A stretch of DNA of 64,000 nucleotides from Bacteroidia bacterium (GTDB taxonomy: Bacteria; Bacteroidota; Bacteroidia; M30B66), in the NCBI GenBank assembly GCA_965279035.1, contig OZ257142.1, positions 1,792,001-1,856,000 of the forward strand, in the 5' to 3' direction. The notes beneath the pieces were generated by a model. It had not been told where the DNA came from. It saw only the letters and a program-made list of their open reading frames with translations, and ran no database searches. Position 1 is the stretch's first letter. Each line of letters starts with the position of its first letter. A program made the translations under genes and the position numbers. Positions 43,846 through 64,000 of the stretch are shown here, piece by piece.

Positions 43846-43875
43846 ATTTCATTAATAAATCATGTATTAACGAAT

Positions 43876-44216
43876 CAGCATACCAGCACACCAGCACATC
43901 AGCACACCAGTTTAATGTGCTAATCCGATAGCTATCGGATAGTTGATGTGCTAATGTGCTTATGGAAAGATCAAATCTGCAACTTTCCGGTAACCTAACA
44001 GCACACTAATTCAATGTGCTAATCCGATAGCTATCGGATAGTTGATATGCTAAAGTGCTAATGGAAAAACACAGCTCCAACCTTCAAGTAGCCTAACAGC
44101 ACATCAGCATATCAGCACACCATTAAATCAATTCAATGTGCTAATTCGATAGCTATCGGATAGTTGATGTGCTAATGAACTAATGGAAAAGAACACTGCT
44201 CAAACATAACGCTAAC
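43876..44216. repeat. Tandem copies A-C of a ~110-125-bp REP/MITE-like unit (TGTGCTAA arm, CCGATAGCTATCGG, spacer, CAGCACAY arm)
   Basis: Units start at ~43913, 44013 and 44135, with palindromes at 43925, 44024 and 44146. Confidence 0.9.
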
Positions 44217-45069: not shown

Positions 45070-45211
45070 TAGCCTATTTCACACCATCAAATCAAATTAA
45101 TGTGCTAATCCGATAGCTATCGGATAGCTAATATGCTAATGTGCAGATGAAAAAGAAAACTGCTGCAACTTTCCGGTAACCTAACAGCACACCAGCACAC
45201 CATCACATCAA
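45070..45211. repeat. Copy D of the TGTGCTAA/CCGATAGCTATCGG/CAGCACAY unit
   Basis: Palindrome at 45110-45123; spacer CTGCAACTTTCCGGTAACCTAACAGCACAC identical to copy A. Confidence 0.9.
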
Positions 45212-46317: not shown

Positions 46318-47298
46318 CTATTTGCTTTTGTGACGCACTACACTCAATGGCCCATCAATGCGGTTCCCATCGGGTAAAATCAATTCGAATTGATACGTTC
46401 CACTGGGCAAACCAGCACCATCCCAATCGTTTCGATAATTATCCGTTTTAAAAACAACCAGGTCTTTTTTATTTCGAATCGTTAAACGACTATAGCGAGG
46501 CAATCCTTCGATATAAAATAAATCATTAAATCCATCTCCATTGGGTGTAACCACTTCGGGAACGTGCATGCGACCTGCTGGTAATATTTCACCCGAAGGA
46601 GGAGCGATAACCTGCACTTCGGTTGGTTTTTCTACTTCAGGTGTACAGCTACCTAAATACACATTGTCCACATAGAGATAGGCCAAACGAATGTATTGTG
46701 TTTGATCATTTGGCTGAAGATTCGTACTTGCATCGTTACGGAAATTACCAATGGTGACAAACTGTTCACCTCCTTTAGCTTTGAATGTAAAGGATAGGAT
46801 TTTCCAAGTTTTTCCTGTATCCGAAATGGCAAGGTATTTTTGACTTTTGAATTCTGGTTCGCGGATAATGGTGTTCCAGTCGTTCGAGCGTATGGAATCT
46901 TTGCTAAGCGCGATGCCCAATTCATCGGTAAAATAGCTCGATTTTTCTGCTGCCGAAACGGAGATTTTTAAACACAATTCTTCACCCGGAATGAGCATTC
47001 TGCTTAATCGAACTTCGAGGTATTCTCTGAAATTGGGATTGTCGGCATCGTAAAGTATCAAGCCGGCAAACTGTTGTCCTTCAGCAGCCTTTTGCTTTCC
47101 ATGTGGCACCTCTCCCGGTTTGATTAAATCGGGACTACCAATTCCTGCAGGAAACCAAGGACTTGCCTGCTCAATATTTCCTGAATATTTCGATTTTACA
47201 GGCTTCAACGAACGTTCGAAGCTCCCATTGGGTATCAAATTCTGCCCACAAACAGGCAGCACAGAAAGTAGAAAAATTATGGTCAGGAAGCGAATCAT
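46318..47298 (-). CDS. Secreted protein with gliding-motility-associated (T9SS type-B) C-terminal domain
   Basis: QNLIPNGSFE N-terminus; C-terminal VPEVVTPNGDGFNDLFYI...YRNDWDG..LPSGTY. Confidence 0.85.
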   Translation of the reverse strand: MIRFLTIIFLLSVLPVCGQNLIPNGSFERSLKPVKSKYSGNIEQASPWFPAGIGSPDLIKPGEVPHGKQKAAEGQQFAGLILYDADNPNFREYLEVRLSRMLIPGEELCLKISVSAAEKSSYFTDELGIALSKDSIRSNDWNTIIREPEFKSQKYLAISDTGKTWKILSFTFKAKGGEQFVTIGNFRNDASTNLQPNDQTQYIRLAYLYVDNVYLGSCTPEVEKPTEVQVIAPPSGEILPAGRMHVPEVVTPNGDGFNDLFYIEGLPRYSRLTIRNKKDLVVFKTDNYRNDWDGAGLPSGTYQFELILPDGNRIDGPLSVVRHKSK

Positions 47299-47324
47299 GC
47301 AAGGGGCGCAAGATAGTATTTTAG

Positions 47325-47670
47325 TGTGCTGATGTGCTAGTTTTTTGATGTGCTAGTTTTCCCGATTGCAATCGGGAGATGTACTAGTTTGTAGCTGCAG
47401 TATACCTCCCGCATCCCCGGATTTCAATCCGGGGGGAGATTACCCTAATCTTTCACATCGCCCCAATCTCTCAATCACCCGCTTCGACAAGCTCAGCGGG
47501 CGGACTCTAGTCTTTCTCTAACCTAAGAGCACACCAACCCACCATCACATCACTTTAATGTGCTAATCCGATAGCTATCGGATAGCTAATGTGCTCATGT
47601 GCTGATGGAAAAGAACACTGCTCCAACCTCGCACTAACCTAACATCACATCATCACACCATCACACCAGC
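47325..47670. repeat. Mixed repeat cluster, including copy E of the TGTGCTAA unit
   Basis: TGTGCT repeats; TCCCGATTGCAATCGGGA (~47360); CCCCGGATTTCAATCCGGGG; GCTTCGACAAGCTCAGC (~47481, reverse complement of the 17891 motif); CCGATAGCTATCGG at 47568. Confidence 0.85.
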
Positions 47671-47689
47671 CTTTAGACTTGCACTATTA

Positions 47690-47870
47690 TTTTAGTTGAG
47701 ATATCTTGACTGAAAATAAACAAAGAAACGGGGTGAACTATCTCATCAGCTAGGTCTTTAAATCCCTAAGGTGTGTATGAGTCCCCGTTTCCTTTAACCA
47801 TGTTGTTAATGGCCAGCTAGAATTTTAGACTTCGAGATCTATTAAAGGTTTTAGCCAAGAGCAACACTTA
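47690..47870 (+). ncRNA. Predicted IS110 bridge RNA
   Basis: 5' hairpin 47691-47714. Target-binding loop closed by GAAACGGGG/CCCCGTTTC, with guides CTCATCAGC (47742) and GGTGTGT (47770). Donor-binding loop closed by TGTTGTT/AGCAACA, with guides CTAGAAT (47817) and TAAAGGT (47843). Confidence 0.85.
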
Positions 47871-47881
47871 AAAACAAAAGT

Positions 47882-48862
47882 ATGAAGAAGAACTTTATTG
47901 GCATTGATGTGTCAAAATTAACGCTGGATGTTTATTTACATAATCAATCTCAGCACAACGTCTTTAGCAATGATATCGATGGTTATACACTGATGCTTGC
48001 TTGGTTAAAGCAGTTGAAAGTGAGTGTAAAATCGATGGCCATTTGCTTTGAGCATACGGGTATTTATAGCGAGGATTTATCTGTGTTTTTGAGTGAAAAG
48101 AAGATCTGTTTTTACATGGAATCCTCCTTAAACATTAAGTATTCTATTGGACTTCAGCGAGGCAAAAATGATAAGATAGACTCCCAAAGAATCGCAAATT
48201 TCATTGCATTACATGCAGAACAGCTTAGCCCAACGGTACTATCAAAGAGTGCTGTAGCGCAGCTGAGAAAGCTCTTGAGTATGCGTTCGCATCTGGAAAA
48301 AGAGAAGATAGGCATCAAAAACAGACTTAAGAACTCATCAAAAACCACTGGTGTAGATATAGTTTTTCAAATCGAAACGGATCTGTTAAAGACCTTTAAC
48401 GATAAACTTAAACTGGTAGAAGAGGAAATCAAATCATTGATAAAGTCAGATGATAATCTTCGTCAAATCGACGAATTAGTTCAATCTATAAAAGGAGTTG
48501 GACCAGTGTCGAGTTGGTATTTAATCGCCACAACAAATGGCTTTGAATACTTCGACAATGCTCGTCAATATGCATGTTATAGTGGAATAGCTCCATTCGA
48601 AAAATCATCAGGAACATCCATAAAAGGGAAAACACAAACCGATAGAAGATCAAATCGAAAAATCAATGGAGTATTAACAATGGCGGCGCGTTCGGCAGTA
48701 TTAAATAACACCGAAATGAGAGAATATATGGAGCGTAAAATCCAGGAAGGAAAACATTATAATTGTGCACTCAATGCAGTCAAAAACAAACTTGTATCAA
48801 GAGTATTTGCTGTCGTAAAAAGAAAAACACCCTATGTTGATCTAAAAAAATACGCTGCATAG
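47882..48862 (+). CDS. IS110-family DEDD recombinase/transposase (326 aa)
   Basis: GIDVSK, FEHTGIY, KNDKIDS (DEDD RuvC-like); SIKGVG and GIAPFEKSSGTS (catalytic Ser region). Confidence 0.97.
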   Translation: MKKNFIGIDVSKLTLDVYLHNQSQHNVFSNDIDGYTLMLAWLKQLKVSVKSMAICFEHTGIYSEDLSVFLSEKKICFYMESSLNIKYSIGLQRGKNDKIDSQRIANFIALHAEQLSPTVLSKSAVAQLRKLLSMRSHLEKEKIGIKNRLKNSSKTTGVDIVFQIETDLLKTFNDKLKLVEEEIKSLIKSDDNLRQIDELVQSIKGVGPVSSWYLIATTNGFEYFDNARQYACYSGIAPFEKSSGTSIKGKTQTDRRSNRKINGVLTMAARSAVLNNTEMREYMERKIQEGKHYNCALNAVKNKLVSRVFAVVKRKTPYVDLKKYAA

Positions 48863-49332
48863 ACTTGCATAAGTCCTAGAATACACACCAACCCACCAGC
48901 ACATCAGATAAGTAAGATTCTTACTCTCCTCATCTTATCATCCCTAAAATTTCCGGACTTGGGGGCTTCATTACAAAATCCATTTTCGTTTAAAGAGTGT
49001 AGAGATAAAGTTTTCAACAGAGCTAGTGTTATTTTGACACAATTAATTGGCAATGTGGGTGCTGATAGGCCTTTTATGTGGCTTATTCTGTTGAAAATCA
49101 AGGATTCTGTAAATTTGGTATTTCCATCTGATTGGTCTATTTTTATGCTCCCTAAATTTCCCTTAGAAGTACCCTAATCTGTTTTGCTTTGAAAAATTTT
49201 GACGTGCTTTCTCGCTTCTCAACCCAAAACACTGCATTTTCTGTGTGGTGTAAGAAAAACAGCAAGTCTGTAACGTTTCCGATTTCATCCCGTATGCTTA
49301 GTGTTTTGAAAACTACCCTTTTCCCCGCATCC

Positions 49333-52300
49333 ATGAAGAACTTCAACTCCACCACCATGATGCTTACCCGTATTCGTTTAACCTGCTTGTTAGTACTTGC
49401 CGGTTTATCTGCTTTTGCGCAGACTACCGTTACCTACACCCAGCAACAGGCAAACTACTACACCACTTTTACTGCCGGTACTGCTGGTAACTTCAACCAA
49501 GGCTCTTTCCAACTTGGGATGTATGCCAATGCTGGAGGTACAAAACAAGTAGCATCATTTCGTAAATTTCGAACGGATGGTTCGGGTTCATCTACCGGTG
49601 ATCGGAGTATGAAAGTCGGTGATCAGTTTGTAGTCACCTTATCGGCTACTCGTGCCTATGGTAGAATCGGTTTCTCCCTTTTGGCTTCTCCAAGTGCAAC
49701 TACTGCTTGGACCGATCGGGAAAACAATTATGCGATGAGCATGAATTTGGACGGAAATTCCGGAGCTTGGGGTAACTGGTATGCGAAGTACAATGGCGGT
49801 GGAACTTCTGCAGGATCGGCAAACGTAGCTGGACAACAAACTACCTATAAAAATTTCACTTTCACTCTTACGCTTACAGCTCCAGATCGGATGAATGCCA
49901 CCTGGACAGATGGAACAACAACTAGTAATCTCTACGATATTCAATTAAATACTTCCAACCCGATTACCGACTATTGCGTGTTTTTGGAAGACGACTGGGA
50001 TGGCGGAGCAAATCGAAACATCTACTGGGGATTAGGAGCAGTAGGAACTCAACACACATTAACCAATACAGGTAACTGTACTATTGGACAAAGCAATTCT
50101 TCCTTTACAACTTCAGGAGTAATTTTTAACGGACTCGATGCCAATAGCGCATCCACCAATAGCTTAAACAACAACTTAGTAAAAAGCGGAACTGGTACAC
50201 TCACCTTGAGCGGCGCTAATACATATGTTGGAACTACAACAGTAAATGGTGGTTCACTTCTATTAGGTGCATCCGGTGTGATTCCTGATGCAAGTAATGT
50301 AACTCTTAATGGTGGAACCTTGAGTTCTGGATCCGGTGCAGGTTTTACAGAAGTCATGGGGACTTTGAACCTTAGCGCCAATTCAACCTTAGCTCTCGGA
50401 ACAGGAGCACATACAATCACTTTTGCTAATTCCAGTGCTGTTTCTTGGACAGCCAATACGATCCTTACTGTTACTGGTTGGACAGGTACCAATAATGGAA
50501 ATTCATCTGGAACAGCAGGGAAGCTGTTTGTTGGAAATGGCTTTGGCGGATTGACAGGTATTCAATTATCAAGAATTCGATTTAATATCAGCGGTACTTT
50601 GTATGGAGCCATGCAATTGAGTACAGGTGAAGTGGTACCTACAGGTGGAACGGTTTTATACTATGGTGGTGCAAATGGTACTTGGACTGGAAGTTTATGG
50701 AGTGTTAATGAAGGTGGACCATATACTACAGCATGGACATCTGGTTGTCATGCTGTAATGAATTTAACTTCAGGAGCAAATACTCTTACTGGAGCTACTA
50801 CTAACATTGCTGCAATTACTGTAAATGCTGCGGTAACATATGCAATAGGAGGTACTTGGAGTATGGGTCCTGCAGGTGCTGCCGTTGCTCCAATATACGT
50901 AGATAATGGGGTAACATTTTCAATGCTTGGTCAGGGAATTTCAGTTACAGCTGGAAATGGTATAATAAAAAATGGTTCAGGGATTTTACAAGGCGCCAAT
51001 GGTAATAATTACTTAGGTGGATTTACAATTAACAATGGAATGTTTGCCATTGGTGGAATTAATTCCATGGGAAATGGTGGAACTTTAAATATTAATGGTG
51101 GAACATTAGCCGGAACTGCAAATCGTGATTTAACAGGAAAATTTAGTTCAATAACTATTGGTGGAGATTTTACATTAGGTTCATCTACTTCTCCTGCATC
51201 AGGTACTGCAACATTAACTTTTACAAATAATACAGCTTTAGGAAGTTCTGTTACACGTACAATCACATTAGGTGGAACTGGTTTAATTACTTGGAATGGT
51301 ATCATCAGTGGTACTAGTTCTAACTTAACGATTGGTGCTACTGCAGCGGGTTCTATGTCGCTTGGTGGAGTTAATACATTTGGAGGAAACTTTACAGTCA
51401 ATGCAGCATCAAGTACCATTACACTCGCAGCAGCAAATTCATATGGTGGAGGAACAGTTGTTAATGCTGGTACATTAAAACTTACTATTTCTTCTGCAAT
51501 CCCATCAGGTTCGGCATTAAGTTTTGCGAATACATCAGGAGCAATTCTCGATTTAACTACGACTGCTTTAACACACACTGTTGCCTCTCTTTCGGGTGGT
51601 GGCTCAACTGGTGGTAATATCAGCTTTGGCGCTCCAGCTACAGGCGAAGTGTTAACAATCAATCAATCAGGTAACACAACGTATTCAGGTTTAATTAGTG
51701 GTAACGGTTCAATCACCAAAACAGGTGCTGGAATCTTAACCTTTGGTCATACTGCTAATACTTATACAGGTTCTACAACCATTTCGGCTGGAGAGCTTCG
51801 CTTGAACCCAAGCACAACCACAGCTACATTTGCTTCACCCGTAATTTTAAGTGGTGGTAAATTGAGCACTACTTCGATTACAGCTGCTACAACTTTCACT
51901 AGCTCATCAACCTTAAAACTTAACGCAAGCAGCAGCATCGACTTAGGTTCGAATGCGCATTCCTTGAAATTTGCTGCTTCGAACGGTGTTGCTTGGACAG
52001 GTGCAACTACCTTAACAATCAATGGTTGGACAGGTACAGGAGGAGCAACAGGAACTGCTGGTAAAATCTTTTTCGGTTCTGCAGTAGGAACACTTACAGG
52101 AACTCAATTAGGGCAAATCACATTTACTGGTTATACGGGAACACCTATCCTTTTATCAACAGGAGAATTGGTTCCTCCAGTTCCGTCAGTTACCTATACA
52201 TGGACTGGTGGTGCAGGAGATTTTCTTTGGACAAGTCCAGCCAACTGGAGTCCTGGAACAAGTACAGCAGGCGTTGGTCCAACAGCTACCGACAATGTTG

Positions 52301-55300
52301 TTATTCCGGTTGCAACAAACATGTTAAACTTAAACGTTGCTAAAACGGCAGCGAATTTCACATTAAGTGGAACAGGAAGTTTCCAAGTAGGAGCATCAGG
52401 CTCGCTTACAGTAACAGGTACATTAACGAATTCAAGTTCGGCTACACCAACATTTAACTGTGGTTCAACATTCACAGTAAGCAGTGCTGGACAAACCATC
52501 CCTGCATGGAATTACGGAAACTTGGTATTGAGTGGTACAACAGCCACATTAGCAAGTTCAGGAACGATTGGTATTTGCGGAAGTTACACACCTTCTGCTA
52601 CTACCACTGTAACAGGAAGTACTGTTGATTTCAATGGTTCTACCGCTCAAAGTATTTTAACCAATGCAGCGGTATTCAATAATTTAACGATTTCGAATAC
52701 GGCATCAACTGTAACATCGGGAGTAAACGTAACGGTAAACGGAACAGGAACGATTAATTCAAGTGCTACCTTTATTCAATCGGCAGGAACTTTTGCAGCC
52801 AATGCAGTTGCCACAACGGTTAATGGTACATTACGAGTTACAAGTACAGGGGCAGCAACAGGTTCGGCAGCGAACTTAATTTTCAGCTCTACTGGAACTT
52901 ATGATCATAATCGGGATGGAGGAGCAATTCCATCGGCTTCTTGGAATGCAACTTCTAATTGTAATATCACCGGTATTAACGCAACATTGTGTACAAACAC
53001 AGCTCAAACATTTGGTAACTTCTTATGGAATTGTCCTTCATCGTCGACAACATTTAACTTTGGAGCTGCATTAATGACCAATGTTGTAGGGCTTTGTGAG
53101 ATAAGAAATACGAATGGAGCTACAGGTACACTGGGTTTTGATGCAACTAGAACTTGGACTGGAAATTTATCGATCACAGGTGGTAGAATTGCATTAACAA
53201 GAACGGGTTCAGCAACAAGTTCTTCTTTAACTGTCAATAATTTTACATTAGATAATACAAGCGATGCCAACGCACGATTTACACTTGGAGGAAATGCTTC
53301 TAATGTGGCATCAACTCTCACTGTAAATGGAACCTTCACTATTACATTGGGACAAAATGCGGCTGTCTCTCCAATTATAGTTTACGGAGGATTAGCAGGA
53401 ACTGAGAATGTTAATGTAGTAGGTAATTTCTCTCAAACGGGAGCTTTCACAGGATCTATAGGAGGTTCTTCAAGCAGAAACTTCAATTTTACGGGTGCTG
53501 GAACAAGAACAATATCTTGGGCAAGTTCAACTTTATGGGGTTCTGTTGCTGTTAATGTAAATAGTCCAGCCATTATAGATATTGCAAACTATGTATTAAA
53601 TAACACGGGTACATTCACACTAAACTCTGGAGCAGGTATCATCACAGCCAATGTCAATGGATTAACCACTTCGGGAGCAACAGGATCAATTCAATCGTCT
53701 GGTTCACGTACGTATACTTCAGGTGCTAACTATACCTATAATGGTACTGCGTCACAAGCAACTGGAAATGGATTAAATCAAAATACACCAACCAATGTTA
53801 ATATTGATAATACTGCAGGAGTAACGCTTTCTGGAGCAACAACCATAAGCGGTGTATTAACTTTGACTAACGGGAAGTTGGATATTGGTGCAAATGATTT
53901 GACTTTGAGTAGTGTCGGATTAGGAAGTGTAACGGGAGCGAGTTCATCCAAATACATTATTACTTCTGGAGCGGGACAATTACTAAGAGCAATTTCAACT
54001 GGAGGATATCCTTTAACCTATACCTACCCGGTTGGAGATGCAAGCAACTATACACCAGCAGCATTCAATTTTACTTCTGGCGGAACTGCTCGCAATATTG
54101 GAGTACGAGTAGTAAATACAGTACATCCGAGCAATACTCCTTCAACCGATTATGCCAACCGTTATTGGGCTGTAAGCAATAGTAATGCAGCTGGCACTTT
54201 TGCTTATACTCCTACGTTTACGATTGTTGATCCAGGAGATATTGGAGCTGGTTCGTATGCCAACATGAAAATAAATCGTTGGAATGGTACTTCTTGGACT
54301 CAATATGATACATCACCCAATACTACGTTTAGCACTCCTGATTTTACCTTAACTTCTACACTTATTCAGTTCACAATTGTCAATGGTGGTACTAATGAAT
54401 TTGCTATTCGCTTAAACAATCCAGCAATCAATTACACTTGGAACGGAGGTACAAGTTCATCGTGGACTACAACAACCAACTGGACACCGAATGGAACTCC
54501 AGGTGTGAATGATAATATTACCATTCCAGATGTTGCATCATATACCAATGAATTGATTGTAAGTGGTTCAAAAACAGTAACCGATTTCACAGTAAGCGCA
54601 AATGGAAAGTATACTTTAGGTGCTGCCAGTTCATTAAATGTTGCAGGAAACTATACCTATAGCAGTTCAACTGCTCCAACATTTGATTGTACTAGCACAT
54701 TGAGTTTGAGTTCAGCTTCAAGTCAAACTGTACCAGCACATAATTATGGTCATTTAAATTTAAGTGGGGGAGATCGCGTTTTAGCAAGCAGTGGAACGAT
54801 AGGAATTTGCGGAAATTATACTCCAAGCAGTGGTGTTACAACCATAACAGGAAGCACTGTTGATTTCAATGGTACATCGGCACAAACGATCATTACCAAT
54901 GCGGCATCATTTAATAATCTAACCATTTCCAATACTTCATCTACAGTAACTGCCAGTGTGAATGTTACAATCAATGGAACTGCTACGATTAACTCGAGCG
55001 CAACGTATGTTCAATCGGCCAATACATTAACCATCGCAGCAGCAACAACCACCAATGTAAATGGAACCTTACGTAATTCGGGAGGAACTATTACTAACAG
55101 TGGCACTTTAAACTTCAATGCATCGTCTATATATGACCATGCACGCGATGGTGGAGCAGTACCAACAGCTACTTGGAATGCTACTTCAAACTGTAATATC
55201 ACCGGTATTAATGCAACATTATGTACAAACACAGCTCAAACATTTGGTAATTTCTTGTGGAATTGTCCTTCATCGTCGACATCATTTAACTTTGGAGCAG

Positions 55301-58300
55301 CATTAATGACCAATGTTGTAGGACTTTGTGAAATAAGAAATACGAATGGAGCAACAGGTACACTAGGTTTTGATGCAACAAGAACTTGGACAGGAAATTT
55401 ATCGATCACAGGTGGAAGAATTGCATTAACCAGAACGGGTTCTGCAACAAGTTCCTCTTTAACTGTCAATAATTTTACATTAGATAATACGAGCGATGCG
55501 AATGCACGTTTTACTATTGGCGGAAGTGGTTCGAACGTTTCAGCGGTATTAACTACCAATGGTAATTTTACCATGGTTATGGGTCAAAATGCAGCAGCTA
55601 CTCCAGTTATAGTTTATGGTGGTATTTTAGGAACTGAAAATATTATCGTTAAAGGTAATTTTAGTCATAGTGGTTCAGGAACAGGAACCATCAGTAGATC
55701 TGGAACAGGAGGAACATCCGAAACATTCACATTTACACCAACAGGAGCTCAAACATTCACAAGTGCAAATGCTAGTTTATTTGGATTATGTGATGTAGTT
55801 CTTAATGGAACTGGATCTTTAGCTTTTGATGCAACAAGTATCATCGCCAATACAACTGGAGCTACGCCAACAGTAGGTCGATTTACCTTGGCTTCTGGGG
55901 CAACAATTATAACAGCAAATACAGGTGGTTTATCCCTTACCGGTTCTACAGGTAGTATACAATCAGGAGGAACTAGAACATACAATGCTGCCGCGAATTA
56001 CACTTACAATGGTAGTTCTGCTCAGATAACCGGTTTAGGTTTGGTTCAAGCGAATAATTTAACAATCAACAATGCCGCAGGAGTTACTTTATCGGCAGGA
56101 ACAACAATAACAAACAATGTCAACCTGAGCAATGGTGTTTTAACATTGAATACGGCTGATTTAATTATCAATAACGCAGCAACAATCACGGGAACTTTTG
56201 GACCAACTGCCATGATTGCAACCACTGGTTCAGCATCGAGAAGCTCAGGAAGAGTTATGCGCATGTTCCCATCAGGAACTTCTAGTGGATCTTTCACTTT
56301 CCCATTAGGAGATATTACAGGAACAGCTGAATATTCTCCTATAACTATTTCTCTATCTTACACTGGAGCTACATTGCCTCCTTATGTTGCCTATAAAGTA
56401 AAAGATGCACAAAATCCAAGTGATCCATCCATTACAAATTATATCAGCAGATATTGGGAAGTAACTTCCAATTTATATTCAGCTACAGGTATTTCGTTTA
56501 CAACTACATCAACCTATGTAACAGCCGATATTGTAGGAACTGAAACTTTAATAGAACCGAATCGCCTTTCTCAATCGGGTGTTGATATCGGTACTTGGTA
56601 TGAAGATGCTACCGGAAGTGCTGGTTCAAACACACTCAATGGAGCAACCTTAACTTCTGCAAACGATTTCAATGATGATGATTTAACGGGAAGATTAACA
56701 GTACCAATTTATTTCCGTTCGAATGTTGCTACAGGCAATTTTGAAAGCCCGGGTTCATGGTTAGTATCTACCGATCCTGCTTTCCTTGCACCTGTTGGAA
56801 CAACTACTACTGCATCTCCAACATATAGTAATTGTGATGGTATTGAAATTATGAGTGGTCATAATATTACCATTGCTGCTGCAGCCGGAATTGATCAAGC
56901 AACGGTAAATTCTGGAGGAACATTAACGATTGGTGCAGGAGCTACTTTGGTTGTATACAACGGAACCGGTACCGATTTACAAGTGAATGGTTCTTTGGTC
57001 AATCAATCGAGCATTGCTGTAACATTAGCAGGAACTCTTGTAATTGGATCTACTGGTTTGTACAATCATAACATCAACAGTGGAACTATTCCTAGTGCAA
57101 CATGGACTGCAGGTTCAAATTGTTTGATTTCAGGAATGACCACAACAGCACCATCTGGATTAGGTCAAGCATTTTCTGATTTCACGTTTAACTCAACATT
57201 ATCTGCAAGCAATAGCTTAAGCAGCGCTTTAACGAATGTTGGAAGAGACTTAACTATCAATGGAACTGGCGGTTTCACTTTAGGTTTAACATCAACTACA
57301 GCTTTAGCATTAACTGTTGGTAGAGATCTGAATGTAACATCAGGCTTCCTAACATTAGTTACTGGAGCAAATACCAATACTGTTTCACTTACTGTTTCGG
57401 GGGATTTAAAAATCTCTGGAAATGGTGGATTCTCCATCGCTGGTGGATCATCATCAGGAGCTGGTTCAACTACTTTAACTGTAAATGGATTAGTTAATAA
57501 TACTTCTTCTTCTGGTACTTCGTTCGTGATGTCGGGAGCATCTAAAATTGTTACTGCAACCATAGCTAATGGATATTCTCAAAGTTCAGGAACGGCTTCT
57601 ATGTCGCAAGGTTCTGGAGCAACTACATTAACCATTGCAACAGGTGGATTTACATTAAGTGGCACCGGTTCTTTCAATATGAACAATGGTGGAACGGGTG
57701 GAGCAACAATGAACATTACTTCTGGAGATTTCACACAATCTGCGGGTAACTTTAATCTCTGTGCTTCTAGTACTGGACCAGCTTATATCAACCAGAATAA
57801 TGCAGCCAACGGAATGGTATTATCTGGTGGAACAATGAATGTTTTACTTGGAAATTCTGTTACGTATGCGAATCGCCCAATCATCACCTTGGCTGGTTCA
57901 TTTAGTCAAAGCGGCTCCCATGCATTTGATTGGGGCGGAGGTTCTGTATCAAATACAGCAAGTCCATACCCAGCCGAATTAAGAGTTGCTAAAGATTTCT
58001 CACGTGCAGGAACATCTACTATCAACTGTAGTAGCGGAAGTGTGACGAATAAAGGCTTGATCTTATTCAATGGAACACAAAACATTTCCTCGCTTTCAAC
58101 AGGTACATTTAATAAAACAGAGACTCAAATTTCAGGTACTTCAACACTGAATAACGACTTCACCATGACTTCTGGTGCGAACACCGTTTTCACGATTAAT
58201 TCGGGAGGTCGTTTAAATACAAACAATTATGTAGTATCAGCTCCAGGAGGTACACCAACCTTTACTTTATCAAGTGGAGGTACTATTTCTTTAACTGCAG

Positions 58301-61300
58301 CTTCTGGAACTAGTAATTCAACTGGAAACATACAGATCAATGCCCCAACCTATAATGCTGGAGGTAACTACTTGTTCGAAGGAAGTACTTCAGGTATGGT
58401 TACTGGACCTTATTTACCTGCTTCTGTAACAGGAAATATAACTATCAATAATAGCAATGGGGTAACACTTTCGAATAACCTTACTATAGGTGCTGCAAGT
58501 GTTCTTACTTTAACCTCTGGTGTATTCGATCTTGGAACTAGCAATCTAATTTTAACATCGGGTGCAACGATTAGTAACTATGCTATTTCTCGTTACATTA
58601 AAACAAGTAGCACTGGAACAATTCGTCAAACTTTAGCTACCAATACACCTGTTCTTTTCCCAGTTGGGAATAGTGGGTACAATCCTATAACTTTGAGTCA
58701 ATCGGGAGCTAGCGATAATTATACGCTTCGTATGATTGATGGAGCTATTTCTGGATTGAGTCCAAATGATGTTACTAAGACAATCAATCGTAATTGGTCG
58801 TTTACACGAACAAGCTCAAGCATTGTAAGCATTACAGCAAGTTCTATCTCTTATAATGTAGGTGAAGAAAACAATGCAACAAACTTTAATGCTGGCACTC
58901 AACCGTATTATGGTTTATACAATGGTGCTTTATGGGTTCAAGCTACAGCCACACAAGGAGCGCAAACATTCACCTCTGCCAATGCTGTTTCTTCCTCAAC
59001 TTCTACAAGTTTCAATGTAGCAATGGGTAAAGATGATGCCTTTATTAATCCATCTACTACGTATACTTGGGTTGGTAACGGAGCTGCTGGCGATTGGACA
59101 GATCCGAATAACTGGAATCCAAGTACATCACTTGCAGGTCCTCTTCCGGGCGATAACATCATCATTAATGCTCCAGGTACTGCAAGTAATAATTTGAATT
59201 TGAATATTTCTAAAACCGTTACCGATGTTACATTCAATGGAACTGGCGTTATGGCTTTAGGAGCATCAGGTAGTTTAACCATTAATGGTACTGTAACATA
59301 CGGAGGTAGCTTTAGTGCAACTCTCAATTGTAGTAGTACAATCAATTATGCGAATACTACTGCTCTAACAATCCCGCCATTTAACTATGGAAATTTGGTG
59401 AACGCCAATGCATCAGTAAGAACATGGGCAGCAAGTGCTACAACTGGTATTTGCGGAACTCTAACAGCAGGAATTGGATCAACATTCACAGCTGGTGCAG
59501 GTAGTACAGTTGATTATAATGGAACAGGTGCACAAACAGTTGTTAATCTCAATTATAATAACCTAACGATCAGTCAAAATAGAGGAGGAGCTACTGTTAC
59601 TTTAGCTTCTGGAACTATTGATGTTGCAGGTACATTTAACCCAAGTTTGAGTAACAATTCTATTTCTTATTCAGGAAATACAATTAATTTCTCAGGTTCT
59701 GCAGGACAAGGAATTCCAGCCTTTACATATAATAACATCACAAGTTCAAATCTTGCTCGTACATGGGCAAATTCAGGGGTGATTGATGTAAATGGGACTT
59801 TTGCAATTCCATCTTCCGGTGTGCAAACTGTAACAGGAAGTACTGTTCGCTATTCTAGTACTGCAGCTGGAACAATTACTTTAACAAGTTTCTCTAGTTC
59901 TGCAACACCACGTCATTACAATAATTTAGAAATAGTTGGTGGAGCTTCTTCTATCTGGAACTTAGCTTCTGGATTTAATTTAGGATGCGCTGGTAATTTC
60001 GATTTAACTGGCGCAGGTACATTTACAGTTGCTGTTAATGCCACAGCAAATTCAATGACTGTGGATGGAAATTTAACTGTAAGTGGTTCTGGTAATTTGA
60101 TTATAGCCAATACAGCTACAGCAACTTTAGTCAACAATTTAACTGTTACAGGAAACACAACCATCAGTAATGGATTGCTTACTTGTATTGGTGCTTCTAG
60201 TAGTACTACTGTTCAAGGAAATTTAAGTACGACTGATCTAACCATTAGTGGTTCAGGAGCAGTAAACCTTGATGCAGCAAGTAATACAGCAAGTGCTGCC
60301 ATTACGGTTAATGGAAATATGAGTGTTACCAGTACTTCGGCCAGTGCAGTAAACTTTGGATCAGGTACTAATAATGCAAACAACGTATTCAACCTTAAAG
60401 GAAACCTAAGTAAATCTGGAACAGGTTCATTTAATTGTACTGGAACCTTCAATTCTACTACAGGTTTCTTCTTCAATAATGGGAGTGGAACACAGCAGTT
60501 TAGTTATGCAGGAACTGCAATGACAGCTGCGAATATCAATGTTTCAGCAGCGAGTACCTTGCAGTTAATGAGCAGCTTTAATTTAGGTTCTGCTGGTGCA
60601 AGTAGCTTAAATGTTGTGGGAACAGGTGTTCTTATTATGGGAACCAATGTAGTAACAGCAGGAAACAGTGCCAATCTCTTCAGCTTGAGTTCAACCGGTA
60701 CCTTGAAAACTGCTAATACATCGGGTGTTATAGGATCGATTGCTGGATTTACCTTTGCGAACTGTACGTTTGCATCAGGTGCTATTTTTGAATTCAATGG
60801 TGCTGCAGCTCAAAACACAGGTGTGTCAACCTTTACAGGAATTACTACTGCAAGTTTTTACACCATTACTTGGACTGGAACAACCAGCTTAACATTGGAT
60901 AAATCTTGGAGTTTAAATACTCTCAATTTCACTAACAGTGGTTTGATTTATTTGGGCACCAATAACTTAACAATTACTTCAGCTGGATCAATTACAGGAG
61001 GTTCATTCTCTGCATCCAAGATGATTGTAACCGACAATACAGGAACATTAGTTAGAAGTGTAACTTCAGTTGGTGTAGGATTACCATTTACTTGGCCAAT
61101 TGGCGAAAATACAGGAACAACAGAATACTCTCCTGTTACAATTGCTTCTTTAGCTTCTGGTGGTATTGCTGGATCCATAGGTTTCAGAGTCGTGGATGGT
61201 ATTCAACCGAATATGAGTCCTGCAACCATCTATGCAAGCAGATACTGGCCATGTACAGTTTCGGGATACAATGCAACTTATACATTAGGAAGTTCGACCT

Positions 61301-64000
61301 TTACTTATGTACCAGGCGATATCGTAGTTGGTCCTGAGTCTTCATTTAAAGGAGATGTTTATAATTCTACAACATCACTTTGGACTGAGTTAGCATCGTC
61401 ATCTGCCGTTTCTAGCGTCTTAACTATTGCATCCGGTTTGAATGGTACTGTAATGCCTACTGGTGGTTCTTCTGCAACGTATGATATTGCACCTAGAGTA
61501 GATGTACCAACGTATTATCAAACAGTAGCTTCTGGCAACTGGACTACTTTAGGTACTTGGGAAATTTCAACAGATCCTGCCTTTGTTTCTCCTGCTGGTT
61601 CACCTGCGGTAAGTGTTCCAACCAACTTGAACAGTGCTGGAATTTTCATTCGAAATGGACATACAGTAACTGTCAACACTAGTTTATCCGGTGATGATGT
61701 TACCATTTATTCTGGTGGTACTTTACAATTAACTGGAAATACATTCACATTGGCTAATGGATCAGCAGCAACCGATTTAACTGTTAATTCAGGAGGAACC
61801 TTGCTTTGTGCTTCTGCAACGAATAACTCACTTGTTGTTGCTTCAGGTGCAAGTATGCAAGTGAATGGATTATTTATGCAAGCTGGCTCTGCTAGTCCTG
61901 ATTTGACAAACAGTGGAACCATCACCATTGGAGCTACTGGAACGTATGAGCATGCTCGAAATGCGGGTATCATTCCAACTTGTACTTGGACTGCAGGTAG
62001 TCTCTGTTTATTATCAGCCGTAACGAATAATGTTCCTTCTGGTTTAGCTCAAAGTTTCCATCACTTCACTGTTAATACAACATTAACAGCAAGCGTAAGC
62101 ACATCTGGAAATCTTCAAACAATTTTGGGTGATTTTAATTTGACTACTAATCACGCATCATTTGCCTTTAGCCTTTCTGCTGGTACATCCTATAGTTTGA
62201 ATGTTTCCGGTGATATGACTATTAACAACGGAATTTTAGATTGTGCGAATAGTGGAGCTGGACCAAATTCAGTTACAGTTACTGGTACAACAACAATGAC
62301 TGGTGCCAATTCTCAAATAACTAAGAAAGGTCCAGCAGCAATGACATGGAATTTCAATGGGAATTATACTCAAAACTCAGGAACATTGGAATTCAATGCG
62401 GGTGGTTCAAGTAACACAACTGTTAACTTTAGAGGGGATGTTGTGATGAACGGGCCTGTTCAAAGAACAAATGGTGGTACACATTTGATGAATTTCTTAA
62501 AGGCAAGCGGTGTTCAGACCTTAAGTCAAGGAACTCCAATTACTACAGCTCAGGCAATTGTTTGGGCAGTAGGAAATGGAACTACAACCAATACAGTTCA
62601 AATGCTTACGGATGTGAACGTTGGAACTTCTGGATCAACAACCTTTACTGTTAATAATGCGGCCACATTAGATTTTCAAGACAAAACTTTATATGGTACT
62701 AATGCACCATTTTCTATGGGGGCAACTGCAACCTTAAAAATGGGTTCTCAATATGGAATAACCACTGCAGCAGTAGGGGCTACTTCTGGTAATTTGCAAA
62801 CTCAAGTAGCTGGAAGGGTTGTTCAAGCGACTGGAACTTTTATCTATAGTGGTACTGTCAATCAGGTTACTGGAAATTTATTGCCTTCAACATTAACTGG
62901 AACTGGTAAATTAACTATTTCAAATACTGGAACAATTGGAAATAATACAGTTACCTTAACTACAACTCCTACAACTACACCAACCTTTAATCTTGTTTCT
63001 GGGTTATTTGCTGCAGGTGTAGGTCAGACATTAAATATTACAAGTGGCGGAACTGTAAATGCTACAGGTGGTGATTTTGTTACAGGAAGTACAGCAGGTT
63101 TTATTAACTTCCCAGGAACTGGCACATGGACAGGTTCATGTAATCCGTATAATGTAAATATTAGTGGTGGAGTTAATTTTGGAGCAGGAACTGTAACCAT
63201 TCAAAATAGTGGTACACTAAAAATAAATGCTGGTGGTTTTGTGTCTACAAACGCACCTTTTTATAATGCTAATTCAAATTTACAATACAATGTAACTTCA
63301 GGAACTACTTATGGTAGAGGTTTGGAATGGTATCAATCCGCAGGCAGAGGTTATCCTGGAAATGTTAGAATTAGTAATAATAATACATTAGATCCAGCCA
63401 ATGGTGGTGGAAATATTAATGGATCTGCCGCTGTAAATACTGTATTAAATTGTGCGGGTAGTCTTACAATTGATGCAGGTTCAAGCATGTACATGGACTT
63501 TGGCGGAAATAATATGCAGGTGAATTTGAATATACTTGGTTCACTAAACATATCGGGCAATCTTTCTTCTTCAGGAACCGCAGGAAAGGATATATATGTT
63601 GGGAGAGATTGGAATTATAATACAGGAGCCTCGTATAATGCAAATACACGTGCCGTTTTCTTAAATGGATCAGTTAACCAGAATGTAGGAGGAACAGCCT
63701 CAACTACTTTCCCATATTTAGTATTAAATAACAGCGCAGGTGCAACACTTACTATTTCTCAAACAGTAAGCAATACACTAACACTTACAAATGGTAAACT
63801 AACTCTTGGGAATTTCGATTTAAATAGCAATGGAACTATCAGTGGTGCATCAACTTCTAATTATGTTGTAACCAATGGAACTGGTCGTTTGAAACAGACC
63901 GTTGCAGCTAGTAACGTTGCTTTCCCTGTTGGAAATTCAACATACAATCCTATAACGTTGAATAATACCGGTACATCGGATGTATATGGTGTAATAGCTA
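49333..64000 (+). CDS. Giant secreted beta-helical repeat adhesin (>4889 aa, 3' end outside window)
   Basis: MKNFNSTTMMLTRIRLTCLLVLAGLSAFAQ signal peptide; autotransporter-associated beta-strand repeats (KSGTGTLTLSGANTYVGTTTVNGG); G/S/T/N-rich; ~2.2-2.4-kb modules with FPVG..YxP motifs. Frame checked at several points, and the ORF track shows no truncated long fragment. Confidence 0.9.
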   Translation, partial: MKNFNSTTMMLTRIRLTCLLVLAGLSAFAQTTVTYTQQQANYYTTFTAGTAGNFNQGSFQLGMYANAGGTKQVASFRKFRTDGSGSSTGDRSMKVGDQFVVTLSATRAYGRIGFSLLASPSATTAWTDRENNYAMSMNLDGNSGAWGNWYAKYNGGGTSAGSANVAGQQTTYKNFTFTLTLTAPDRMNATWTDGTTTSNLYDIQLNTSNPITDYCVFLEDDWDGGANRNIYWGLGAVGTQHTLTNTGNCTIGQSNSSFTTSGVIFNGLDANSASTNSLNNNLVKSGTGTLTLSGANTYVGTTTVNGGSLLLGASGVIPDASNVTLNGGTLSSGSGAGFTEVMGTLNLSANSTLALGTGAHTITFANSSAVSWTANTILTVTGWTGTNNGNSSGTAGKLFVGNGFGGLTGIQLSRIRFNISGTLYGAMQLSTGEVVPTGGTVLYYGGANGTWTGSLWSVNEGGPYTTAWTSGCHAVMNLTSGANTLTGATTNIAAITVNAAVTYAIGGTWSMGPAGAAVAPIYVDNGVTFSMLGQGISVTAGNGIIKNGSGILQGANGNNYLGGFTINNGMFAIGGINSMGNGGTLNINGGTLAGTANRDLTGKFSSITIGGDFTLGSSTSPASGTATLTFTNNTALGSSVTRTITLGGTGLITWNGIISGTSSNLTIGATAAGSMSLGGVNTFGGNFTVNAASSTITLAAANSYGGGTVVNAGTLKLTISSAIPSGSALSFANTSGAILDLTTTALTHTVASLSGGGSTGGNISFGAPATGEVLTINQSGNTTYSGLISGNGSITKTGAGILTFGHTANTYTGSTTISAGELRLNPSTTTATFASPVILSGGKLSTTSITAATTFTSSSTLKLNASSSIDLGSNAHSLKFAASNGVAWTGATTLTINGWTGTGGATGTAGKIFFGSAVGTLTGTQLGQITFTGYTGTPILLSTGELVPPVPSVTYTWTGGAGDFLWTSPANWSPGTSTAGVGPTATDNVVIPVATNMLNLNVAKTAANFTLSGTGSFQVGASGSLTVTGTLTNSSSATPTFNCGSTFTVSSAGQTIPAWNYGNLVLSGTTATLASSGTIGICGSYTPSATTTVTGSTVDFNGSTAQSILTNAAVFNNLTISNTASTVTSGVNVTVNGTGTINSSATFIQSAGTFAANAVATTVNGTLRVTSTGAATGSAANLIFSSTGTYDHNRDGGAIPSASWNATSNCNITGINATLCTNTAQTFGNFLWNCPSSSTTFNFGAALMTNVVGLCEIRNTNGATGTLGFDATRTWTGNLSITGGRIALTRTGSATSSSLTVNNFTLDNTSDANARFTLGGNASNVASTLTVNGTFTITLGQNAAVSPIIVYGGLAGTENVNVVGNFSQTGAFTGSIGGSSSRNFNFTGAGTRTISWASSTLWGSVAVNVNSPAIIDIANYVLNNTGTFTLNSGAGIITANVNGLTTSGATGSIQSSGSRTYTSGANYTYNGTASQATGNGLNQNTPTNVNIDNTAGVTLSGATTISGVLTLTNGKLDIGANDLTLSSVGLGSVTGASSSKYIITSGAGQLLRAISTGGYPLTYTYPVGDASNYTPAAFNFTSGGTARNIGVRVVNTVHPSNTPSTDYANRYWAVSNSNAAGTFAYTPTFTIVDPGDIGAGSYANMKINRWNGTSWTQYDTSPNTTFSTPDFTLTSTLIQFTIVNGGTNEFAIRLNNPAINYTWNGGTSSSWTTTTNWTPNGTPGVNDNITIPDVASYTNELIVSGSKTVTDFTVSANGKYTLGAASSLNVAGNYTYSSSTAPTFDCTSTLSLSSASSQTVPAHNYGHLNLSGGDRVLASSGTIGICGNYTPSSGVTTITGSTVDFNGTSAQTIITNAASFNNLTISNTSSTVTASVNVTINGTATINSSATYVQSANTLTIAAATTTNVNGTLRNSGGTITNSGTLNFNASSIYDHARDGGAVPTATWNATSNCNITGINATLCTNTAQTFGNFLWNCPSSSTSFNFGAALMTNVVGLCEIRNTNGATGTLGFDATRTWTGNLSITGGRIALTRTGSATSSSLTVNNFTLDNTSDANARFTIGGSGSNVSAVLTTNGNFTMVMGQNAAATPVIVYGGILGTENIIVKGNFSHSGSGTGTISRSGTGGTSETFTFTPTGAQTFTSANASLFGLCDVVLNGTGSLAFDATSIIANTTGATPTVGRFTLASGATIITANTGGLSLTGSTGSIQSGGTRTYNAAANYTYNGSSAQITGLGLVQANNLTINNAAGVTLSAGTTITNNVNLSNGVLTLNTADLIINNAATITGTFGPTAMIATTGSASRSSGRVMRMFPSGTSSGSFTFPLGDITGTAEYSPITISLSYTGATLPPYVAYKVKDAQNPSDPSITNYISRYWEVTSNLYSATGISFTTTSTYVTADIVGTETLIEPNRLSQSGVDIGTWYEDATGSAGSNTLNGATLTSANDFNDDDLTGRLTVPIYFRSNVATGNFESPGSWLVSTDPAFLAPVGTTTTASPTYSNCDGIEIMSGHNITIAAAAGIDQATVNSGGTLTIGAGATLVVYNGTGTDLQVNGSLVNQSSIAVTLAGTLVIGSTGLYNHNINSGTIPSATWTAGSNCLISGMTTTAPSGLGQAFSDFTFNSTLSASNSLSSALTNVGRDLTINGTGGFTLGLTSTTALALTVGRDLNVTSGFLTLVTGANTNTVSLTVSGDLKISGNGGFSIAGGSSSGAGSTTLTVNGLVNNTSSSGTSFVMSGASKIVTATIANGYSQSSGTASMSQGSGATTLTIATGGFTLSGTGSFNMNNGGTGGATMNITSGDFTQSAGNFNLCASSTGPAYINQNNAANGMVLSGGTMNVLLGNSVTYANRPIITLAGSFSQSGSHAFDWGGGSVSNTASPYPAELRVAKDFSRAGTSTINCSSGSVTNKGLILFNGTQNISSLSTGTFNKTETQISGTSTLNNDFTMTSGANTVFTINSGGRLNTNNYVVSAPGGTPTFTLSSGGTISLTAASGTSNSTGNIQINAPTYNAGGNYLFEGSTSGMVTGPYLPASVTGNITINNSNGVTLSNNLTIGAASVLTLTSGVFDLGTSNLILTSGATISNYAISRYIKTSSTGTIRQTLATNTPVLFPVGNSGYNPITLSQSGASDNYTLRMIDGAISGLSPNDVTKTINRNWSFTRTSSSIVSITASSISYNVGEENNATNFNAGTQPYYGLYNGALWVQATATQGAQTFTSANAVSSSTSTSFNVAMGKDDAFINPSTTYTWVGNGAAGDWTDPNNWNPSTSLAGPLPGDNIIINAPGTASNNLNLNISKTVTDVTFNGTGVMALGASGSLTINGTVTYGGSFSATLNCSSTINYANTTALTIPPFNYGNLVNANASVRTWAASATTGICGTLTAGIGSTFTAGAGSTVDYNGTGAQTVVNLNYNNLTISQNRGGATVTLASGTIDVAGTFNPSLSNNSISYSGNTINFSGSAGQGIPAFTYNNITSSNLARTWANSGVIDVNGTFAIPSSGVQTVTGSTVRYSSTAAGTITLTSFSSSATPRHYNNLEIVGGASSIWNLASGFNLGCAGNFDLTGAGTFTVAVNATANSMTVDGNLTVSGSGNLIIANTATATLVNNLTVTGNTTISNGLLTCIGASSSTTVQGNLSTTDLTISGSGAVNLDAASNTASAAITVNGNMSVTSTSASAVNFGSGTNNANNVFNLKGNLSKSGTGSFNCTGTFNSTTGFFFNNGSGTQQFSYAGTAMTAANINVSAASTLQLMSSFNLGSAGASSLNVVGTGVLIMGTNVVTAGNSANLFSLSSTGTLKTANTSGVIGSIAGFTFANCTFASGAIFEFNGAAAQNTGVSTFTGITTASFYTITWTGTTSLTLDKSWSLNTLNFTNSGLIYLGTNNLTITSAGSITGGSFSASKMIVTDNTGTLVRSVTSVGVGLPFTWPIGENTGTTEYSPVTIASLASGGIAGSIGFRVVDGIQPNMSPATIYASRYWPCTVSGYNATYTLGSSTFTYVPGDIVVGPESSFKGDVYNSTTSLWTELASSSAVSSVLTIASGLNGTVMPTGGSSATYDIAPRVDVPTYYQTVASGNWTTLGTWEISTDPAFVSPAGSPAVSVPTNLNSAGIFIRNGHTVTVNTSLSGDDVTIYSGGTLQLTGNTFTLANGSAATDLTVNSGGTLLCASATNNSLVVASGASMQVNGLFMQAGSASPDLTNSGTITIGATGTYEHARNAGIIPTCTWTAGSLCLLSAVTNNVPSGLAQSFHHFTVNTTLTASVSTSGNLQTILGDFNLTTNHASFAFSLSAGTSYSLNVSGDMTINNGILDCANSGAGPNSVTVTGTTTMTGANSQITKKGPAAMTWNFNGNYTQNSGTLEFNAGGSSNTTVNFRGDVVMNGPVQRTNGGTHLMNFLKASGVQTLSQGTPITTAQAIVWAVGNGTTTNTVQMLTDVNVGTSGSTTFTVNNAATLDFQDKTLYGTNAPFSMGATATLKMGSQYGITTAAVGATSGNLQTQVAGRVVQATGTFIYSGTVNQVTGNLLPSTLTGTGKLTISNTGTIGNNTVTLTTTPTTTPTFNLVSGLFAAGVGQTLNITSGGTVNATGGDFVTGSTAGFINFPGTGTWTGSCNPYNVNISGGVNFGAGTVTIQNSGTLKINAGGFVSTNAPFYNANSNLQYNVTSGTTYGRGLEWYQSAGRGYPGNVRISNNNTLDPANGGGNINGSAAVNTVLNCAGSLTIDAGSSMYMDFGGNNMQVNLNILGSLNISGNLSSSGTAGKDIYVGRDWNYNTGASYNANTRAVFLNGSVNQNVGGTASTTFPYLVLNNSAGATLTISQTVSNTLTLTNGKLTLGNFDLNSNGTISGASTSNYVVTNGTGRLKQTVAASNVAFPVGNSTYNPITLNNTGTSDVYGVIA

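Follow-up and report, generated by a model that had tools for sequence, protein, structure and literature searches.

The 64,000-nucleotide stretch of Bacteroidia bacterium contig OZ257142.1 analysed here (positions 1,792,001 to 1,856,000 of the forward strand, hereafter the window) very probably carries an intact IS110-group insertion sequence with its own bridge RNA, which reads both the repeat that the element landed in and the element's own ends. This reading is settled by relatives of the element, since the target guides of two of them, L001 and L015, differ from those of the window's copy and the flanks differ with them. Relatives came from a scan of one genome per species, which gave five loci; from a search with the element DNA of the three metagenome-assembled genomes (MAGs) behind those loci, in which the MAG G003 gave four left and three right ends, all seven at contig edges; and from a metagenome scan that gave ten relatives. 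Two of these ten are close, namely L015, a complete copy at 67% amino-acid identity, and L016, a right end; the eight distant metagenome loci (L017-L024) were left out of the comparisons. The named relatives of the element are Bacteroidota MAGs. The window, the three MAGs and two metagenome contigs together provide seven distinct left junctions, each with homology from CTTTAGACTTGCAC onwards, and eight distinct right junctions, each with homology up to CCTAGAAT-AC. The junction strings read in a first-pass annotation made from the sequence alone, CACACCA-GC-CTTTA at 47662-47675 and CTAGAAT-AC-ACACC at 48876-48889, are present as given. The element has a non-coding left end of 211 nucleotides (nt; 47671-47881) and a right end of 22 nt after the stop codon (48863-48884), and this combination of a long left and a short right end indicates an IS110-group rather than an IS1111-group layout.

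Guides, ends and flanks

In the rule given in PMC11208160, the 5' side of each bridge RNA loop reads as the top strand and the 3' side is complementary to the core plus the right half. The guides of the window's element follow this rule. In the target loop, the left target guide (LTG, CTCATCAGC) stands directly 5' of TAGG (47751-47754) and the right target guide (RTG) one base 3' of CCTA (47765-47768). In the donor loop, the left donor guide (LDG) runs as CTAGAAT (47817-47823) and then TT, with TAGA (47826-47829) next, while the right donor guide (RDG) lies one base 3' of TCTA (47838-47841). The first-pass annotation had placed the guides at identical positions around the two inner stems, which holds for the 3' sides as it stands, and for the 5' sides on a 9-nt reading of the donor guide. 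Its individual matches are borne out: CTAGAAT with the right end (7/7), TAAAGGT as the complement of AC-CTTTA (7/7), GGTGTGT as the complement of the core plus ACACC (7/7), and the target loop with the left flank at seven of nine positions, plus one U.G wobble, and at eight of nine at 43895-43903. Among 20,000 mononucleotide shuffles of the left end, the 7-mer of the left donor half (LD) arose in 470, the complement of the core plus the right donor half (RD) in 507 and that of the core plus the right target half (RT) in 128, and all three together in none.

The window, L001 and L015 represent three specificity classes. The LTG of L001 is changed at three positions and the last seven of its nine bases match its own flank 7/7, with six matches and one wobble between its RTG and the right flank. 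L015 has diverged further, its LTG differing from that of the window at seven of nine positions and its RTG at four of seven, and its own flanks match 9/9 and 7/7; guide and flank taken from L015 and the others in non-cognate combination match at just 2-5 of nine and 3-5 of seven positions. G003 contains two RTG variants, on two left ends each, and its right flanks suit one variant or the other. Separately, contigs of sequencing runs X5 and X6 carry at 47769-47770 the RTG variant (A>T, G>A) of L001 and of half of the G003 copies, so that two RTG alleles circulate in several samples.

The same relation extends to a wider clade, whose proteins share 34-41% amino-acid identity. It was drawn from 400 sampled genomes belonging to the same class, 26 of which had the protein at E <= 1e-50. 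The ends of these elements were located via their donor guides, which leaves the target guides as an independent test. For the LTG, cognate flanks match at 5.43 of nine positions against 2.71 for non-cognate flanks (21 loci), and for the RTG at 6.29 of seven against 2.75 (17 loci); in neither case did any of 20,000 permutations reach the observed value. L052 and L053 (second copies with identical guides), unlocated ends and gapped guide strings were excluded from the permutation counts. A further count of RTG matching to the flanking target gave 4.25/5 against 1.44/5. The exact LDG 7-mer stands at the right end in 19 of 27 wider-clade loci, in six sequence variants. The architecture of the IS621 bridge RNA, which the first-pass annotation had recognised here, is therefore upheld both by the guide rule and by the covariation of guides with flanks in relatives.

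Table 1. Features of the element, its bridge RNA and its target sites, in window coordinates
Feature	Coordinates	Strand	Basis
IS110-family element, 1214 bp including right-hand AC	47671-48884	+	homology with L001, L015 and G003 copies begins and ends here
Left target half (LT; positions 1-7 of 14-nt site), CACACCA	47662-47668	+	positions 3-7 pair with LTG (one U.G wobble)
Left junction dinucleotide GC, target-derived	47669-47670	+	matches LTG positions 8-9; first base follows LTG each time
RD, CTTTA, opens left end	47671-47675	+	invariant in 7/7 left ends; complementary to RDG 47843-47847
Candidate -7 box, Bacteroidota-type promoter, TAGACTTG	47674-47681	+	motif match
5' hairpin ahead of target-binding module	47690-47715	+	minimum-free-energy fold; other sequence in L001, L015
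Target-binding module: outer stem 47723-33/47783-93, inner stem 47751-54/47765-68	47723-47793	+	11/11 outer-stem pairs compensatory in wider clade
LTG, CTCATCAGC	47742-47750	+	cognate flank 7/9 plus one U.G wobble; covaries in L001, L015
RTG, GGTGTGT	47770-47776	+	7/7 complementary to 48883-48889
Handshake dinucleotide of target loop, AT	47777-47778	+	complementary to donor positions 7, 6 (T, A), not to target's 7, 6
Donor-binding module: stems 47802-07/47860-65 and 47810-13/47854-57, inner stem 47826-29/47838-41	47802-47865	+	compensatory GGC/GCC versus AAC/GTT in close clade
LDG, CTAGAAT + TT	47817-47825	+	first seven identical to 48876-48882
RDG, TAAAGGT	47843-47849	+	7/7 complementary to AC + CTTTA
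Handshake dinucleotide of donor loop, TT	47850-47851	+	first T pairs with target position 7, A in 7/7 left junctions
Recombinase gene, 326 aa, one long open frame	47882-48862	+	domains, NCBIfam model, solved-structure alignment
Candidate -33 box, CTTG (TTTG in L001, L015)	48864-48867	+	motif match; meets -7 box only in circle
LD, CTAGAAT, closes right end	48876-48882	+	invariant in 8/8 right ends
Right junction dinucleotide AC, donor-derived	48883-48884	+	8/8 distinct right junctions
RT, ACACC	48885-48889	+	read from sequence; complementary to RTG
Best unoccupied guide match in window	43895-43908	+	13 Watson-Crick, 1 wobble, 0 unpaired
Unoccupied paralogous site	45188-45201	+	like restored target, 12 Watson-Crick, 2 wobble, 0 unpaired

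RNA fold, recombinase and rival readings

The left end folds as two internal-loop modules, the first with a loop that matches the flanks and the second with a loop that matches the element's own ends. The long stem around the first loop (47723-33/47783-93) already appears in the single-sequence fold. That fold is only 1.7 standard deviations better than shuffles, and the case for the RNA structure rests on relatives. In the five close sequences, 94.5% of cells are paired, against 38.6-51.7% when partners are slid, and all five compensatory pairs lie within the outer donor stem. A covariance model built from these five matched 28 of the 28 loci of the 400-genome sample, on the coding strand and directly upstream of the gene; it also matched L003, and none of the eight distant metagenome loci. 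In the resulting wider alignment 89.9% of cells are paired against 59.3% in shuffled alignments, no shuffle of 500 reaches its score, and 28 of 29 pairs show compensatory changes, with all five helices covarying. Covariation across homologous elements, put forward in the first-pass annotation as a way of checking its proposal, is thus present in the helices as well as in the target guides. An Rfam search returned no family match, the sole hit near the region being a chance 11-bit fragment of transfer-messenger RNA. In L001 (1275-1335) and L015 (70-140) a longer G-rich stretch (GGGGGTCTGGGGG...) replaces the 5' hairpin, so that conservation of the RNA does not extend 5' of the target loop.

The recombinase carries the two Pfam domains of the family, PF01548 (DEDD_Tnp_IS110; residues 6-151, E 2.5e-16) and PF02371 (Transposase_20; residues 198-283, E 2.2e-18). 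Its identity as an IS110 bridge recombinase, as first annotated, is supported by a score of 169 bits (cut-off 140) with NF033542, the NCBIfam equivalog model for 'IS110 family RNA-guided transposase', and by full-length homology to the transposases of IS621 (residues 4-318, E 1.5e-22, 84 bits) and of ISCro4 (PDB 9t56; residues 4-318, E 1.6e-25), the latter being the best relative with a solved structure. Residues D9, E57, D97, D100 and S243 align with IS621 D11, E60, D102, D105 and S241, where the catalytic residues and their numbering follow PMC11208158 and the reference chain is 8wt6_A with a numbering offset of +2. The protein family is large: of 6160 candidates, 3329 reach E <= 1e-30. Identity to the nearest is 96%, and the named members carry the annotation 'IS110 family transposase'.

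Several observations weigh against the bridge RNA reading or narrow its support. In the window itself, the LTG misses positions 1-2 of its own site, a left match of 7/9 is weak when taken alone (2034 of 20,000 shuffles, about 10%), and the last two LDG bases, TT, mismatch the AC that follows LD. The single-sequence minimum-free-energy fold of 47670-47881 has z = -1.74, and ten of 200 shuffles do as well. In the RNAalifold prediction the LDG and the RDG side are base-paired, which may mean a closed donor loop as long as the RNA is free. The wider alignment was fitted to the model and retains four spurious opposite-strand rows. At fixed register, nine of the 21 wider-clade loci have four or fewer LTG matches of nine, several of them matching after a shift of 1-2 nt, and the RTG of L031 matches at just three of seven positions. 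Donor covariation rests on the wider clade because the donor guides and ends of the close clade never vary, and in the wider clade those ends were located with the guides themselves. Finally, the joint 48884->47671 expected of a circle is not among the contigs of four runs, which cannot reveal a rare circle; the joints listed in those contigs fall in the repeat-rich left flank (47200-47627).

Of the alternatives, the best placed is that the element is a genuine IS110 copy but an immobile relic, with RNA motifs that are inherited and unused in this genome. The missing circle joint would suit such a relic, as would an A.C mismatch in the outer target stem where four relatives have G-C. We nevertheless consider it improbable, since the frame is open over its full 326 amino acids as in the relatives P0001-P0010, all catalytic residues are kept, and every guide fits this copy's own flanks and ends. 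Sequencing depth is a further point against the relic. In run X1, which is probably the window's own sample and hence not independent, the Logan unitig of the element spans 47667-48887 and is covered to a depth of 748, compared with 165-185 in the unitigs on either side. Depth is not copy number; other contigs join the element unitig from different flanks, and together the two observations hint at several copies with CAGC in common at the left end and ACA at the right.

A second alternative takes the left-end RNA for a leader that regulates transposase expression, its guide matches being due to chance or to repeat-rich surroundings. The frequency of a 7/9 left match in shuffles and the low complexity of the octamer repeats in the flanks lend this some colour, but we regard it as very unlikely, given that the three 7-mers never occur jointly in shuffles, that the strongly diverged guides of L015 sit in a matching and different target, and that the permutation tests and guide-flank covariation already contradict it. 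Membership of the IS1111 or seekRNA branch, with a guide RNA downstream of the gene, has next to nothing in its favour beyond the shared protein family domains, as a mere 22 nt follow the stop codon before the element ends, the 211-nt left end holds the structured RNA and the protein reaches 50.9 with the second NCBIfam IS110 model, whose cut-off is 180.

Junction dinucleotides and strand exchange

Our data support a model in which the left-end transcript (about 47686-47865) would act as the bridge RNA. The LTG of its target loop, having the same sense as the left flank, would pair with the bottom strand, and the LDG and RDG of its donor loop would likewise read the right and left ends of the element once joined. 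Donor and target would then be brought together by a tetramer of the recombinase, with its DEDD and Ser active sites, and strand exchange would take place just 3' of position 9, the shared C. The site in which the element landed is a CACAYCAK octamer run of a repeated intergenic unit. Both handshake dinucleotides pair with non-cognate DNA and neither with cognate DNA, target position 6 being left unpaired; such non-cognate pairing at positions 6-7 is described as needed for strand exchange (PMC11208158).

Transcription of the bridge RNA may start from a promoter assembled across the circle junction. In the computed circle, CTTG or TTTG is followed by a 20-nt spacer and TAGACTTG in all three complete elements, and the integrated form of the element contains no such -33/-7 pair. 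With the Bacteroidota consensus reported as TTTG at -33 and TAnnTTTG at -7 (PMC7366714), the junction fits a candidate promoter, as a motif match and not as evidence of transcription. A direct 10-nt repeat, TAGACTTGCA, is also found near both ends of the element (47674-47683 and 48861-48870). Its left copy contains the -7 box candidate and its right copy overlaps the stop codon and the -33 candidate; the repeat is kept only partly in L001 and L015.

The first-pass annotation spoke of a core, but the dinucleotides of the two junctions do not form a single shared one. The left junction dinucleotide is GC in six of seven cases and TC in L015, each as the LTG reads, against AC at every right junction, which leaves C at position 9 as the only shared core base. 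The core dinucleotide is likewise not the same across both junctions and all four guides, the LDG reading TT. Position 8 always stays with its 5' top-strand neighbour, as G or T on the left and A on the right. The reciprocal arrangement, which a 2-bp staggered double exchange with random resolution should produce in roughly every second case, was found in none of at least nine insertions (the window, L001, L015, L002, L016 and at least four in G003). In the wider clade the dinucleotides of the two sides are equal in 11 of 14 loci. The three unequal loci are L031, L034 and L045, the last being doubtful because the match that placed its left end contains a mismatch. In both L031 and L034 the right junction agrees with the RTG core and the left junction with the RDG core; the latter match is exact in L031 and runs via a G.U wobble in L034. 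In 16 of 16 loci the right junction reads as the complement of the RTG core.

Two other accounts of the core were tried and rejected. A GC/AC heteroduplex resolved at random predicts that about half of the junctions are reciprocal, against none among the insertions counted above, and a core at positions 9-10, or AT as the core, gives a poorer fit to the guides.

From the junction sequences, the unequal first core base fits top-strand-only transfer and a 1-nt overlap equally well. Top-strand-only excision and insertion have been reported for CazIS110-1 (10.1101/2025.10.25.684509), and top-strand-only transfer for IS621 (10.64898/2026.08.31.748434). It is conceivable, if somewhat short of an even chance in our estimation, that natural junctions form a population-scale record of IS110 elements moving by top-strand-only exchange, with replication filling in the rest. 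If true, this would side with the two recent biochemical preprints against the earlier Holliday junction model with a 2-bp overlap. The unequal first core base also offers a cheap and testable prediction on strand choice in transposition. In another genome, G237, two copies of one wider-clade element (L038 and L053) have the left dinucleotides TC and AC, and their flanks beside the left junctions differ by few bases.

Landing repeat and comparison with known systems

Restoring the target of the window's element yields the same 14-mer as the unoccupied paralogous site at 45188-45201. Fully pairing sites, with wobbles counted, number seven in the window against a mean of 0.975 and a maximum of three in 40 random windows, and all seven lie in CACAYCAK octamer runs between 41.4 and 48.9 kb. 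These runs belong to a repeated intergenic unit of about 116 nt (43871-44215, 45080-45210 and 47505-47668), in which a perfect 18-nt palindrome is followed by inverted octamers. The palindrome has five copies within 43.9-47.6 kb, where 0.02 are expected, and occurs once in the MAG G003 (L014:1353-1370). Insertion into host repeats is usual for the IS110 family, for which Durrant et al. cite Tobes and Pareja 2006 (PMC11208160).

Among the surroundings, the neighbouring gene weakly matches a type B sorting domain of the type IX secretion system, its 30.7 bits falling short of the cut-off of 35. With this match, the Bacteroidota relatives and the promoter motif, the first-pass annotation's assignment to Bacteroidota is reasonable, if short of proof. 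The element lies upstream of a frame (49189-63999) that begins 304 nt downstream of it, spans at least 4937 amino acids and is still open at the window end. This frame contains long internal repeats in which T, S, G and N are abundant, and it probably encodes a giant surface protein.

The bridge RNA class was published in 2024, and the covariation reported for it spans thousands of orthologues (PMC11208160); a 2026 preprint mines bridge RNA variants at scale (10.64898/2026.10.21.760802). As the first-pass annotation had recognised, the system class is already described: orthologue catalogues are published and the NCBI model NF033542 names the family RNA-guided, and the element is for this reason a further member of a described class. 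A literature search with a scope short of subscription journals and supplements found no paper on a native Bacteroidota bridge RNA, and this clade may already figure in the orthologue tables that supplement Durrant et al. 2024 and the 2026 preprint. What the element adds is a cleanly readable Bacteroidota member of the class, with a 7-nt RTG, C rather than T at the fixed core base and a host-type junction promoter motif, traits that could help if an orthologue native to Bacteroidota is wanted. Neither these traits nor the prediction on strand choice alters the picture of how the class works.

The closest parallel is IS621 of Escherichia coli, which has a recombinase of the same length with aligned D/E/D/D/S residues and, as described in PMC11208160 and PMC11208158, an RNA encoded in the left end with the target loop before the donor loop. 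Shared with it are the 9-nt 5' guide, the 7-nt 3' guide and the strand rule, the handshake dinucleotides 3' of RTG and RDG and the insertion into a genomic repeat. IS621 also has a promoter rebuilt across the circle junction, for which the computed circle of the present element offers a candidate motif. However, the proteins are distant (84 bits over full length), the second core base is C here and T in IS621, and the first core base here differs between donor and target, being A in the former and G or T in the latter. The present element also has an LDG that leaves the core unpaired, an RTG of 7 nt where IS621 uses four, and a junction motif of the Bacteroidota type (TTTG / TAnnTTTG) rather than of the sigma-70 type. 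ISCro4 (PDB 9t56) is a relative at the level of the transposase protein. CazIS110-1 of Caloranaerobacter azorensis is likened by junction pattern and not by sequence: its top-strand-only transfer would yield exactly the pattern seen here, in which position 8 comes from the target at the left junction and from the donor at the right one, although the evidence there is biochemical and here comparative. ISPpu9 and ISPpu10 of Pseudomonas putida are likewise IS110 elements residing in repeated extragenic sequences (PMC12288879, 10.64898/2026.03.19.712850); their host repeat is the repetitive extragenic palindrome (REP), whereas the element described here occupies a unit of about 116 nt built from octamer runs and an 18-nt palindrome.

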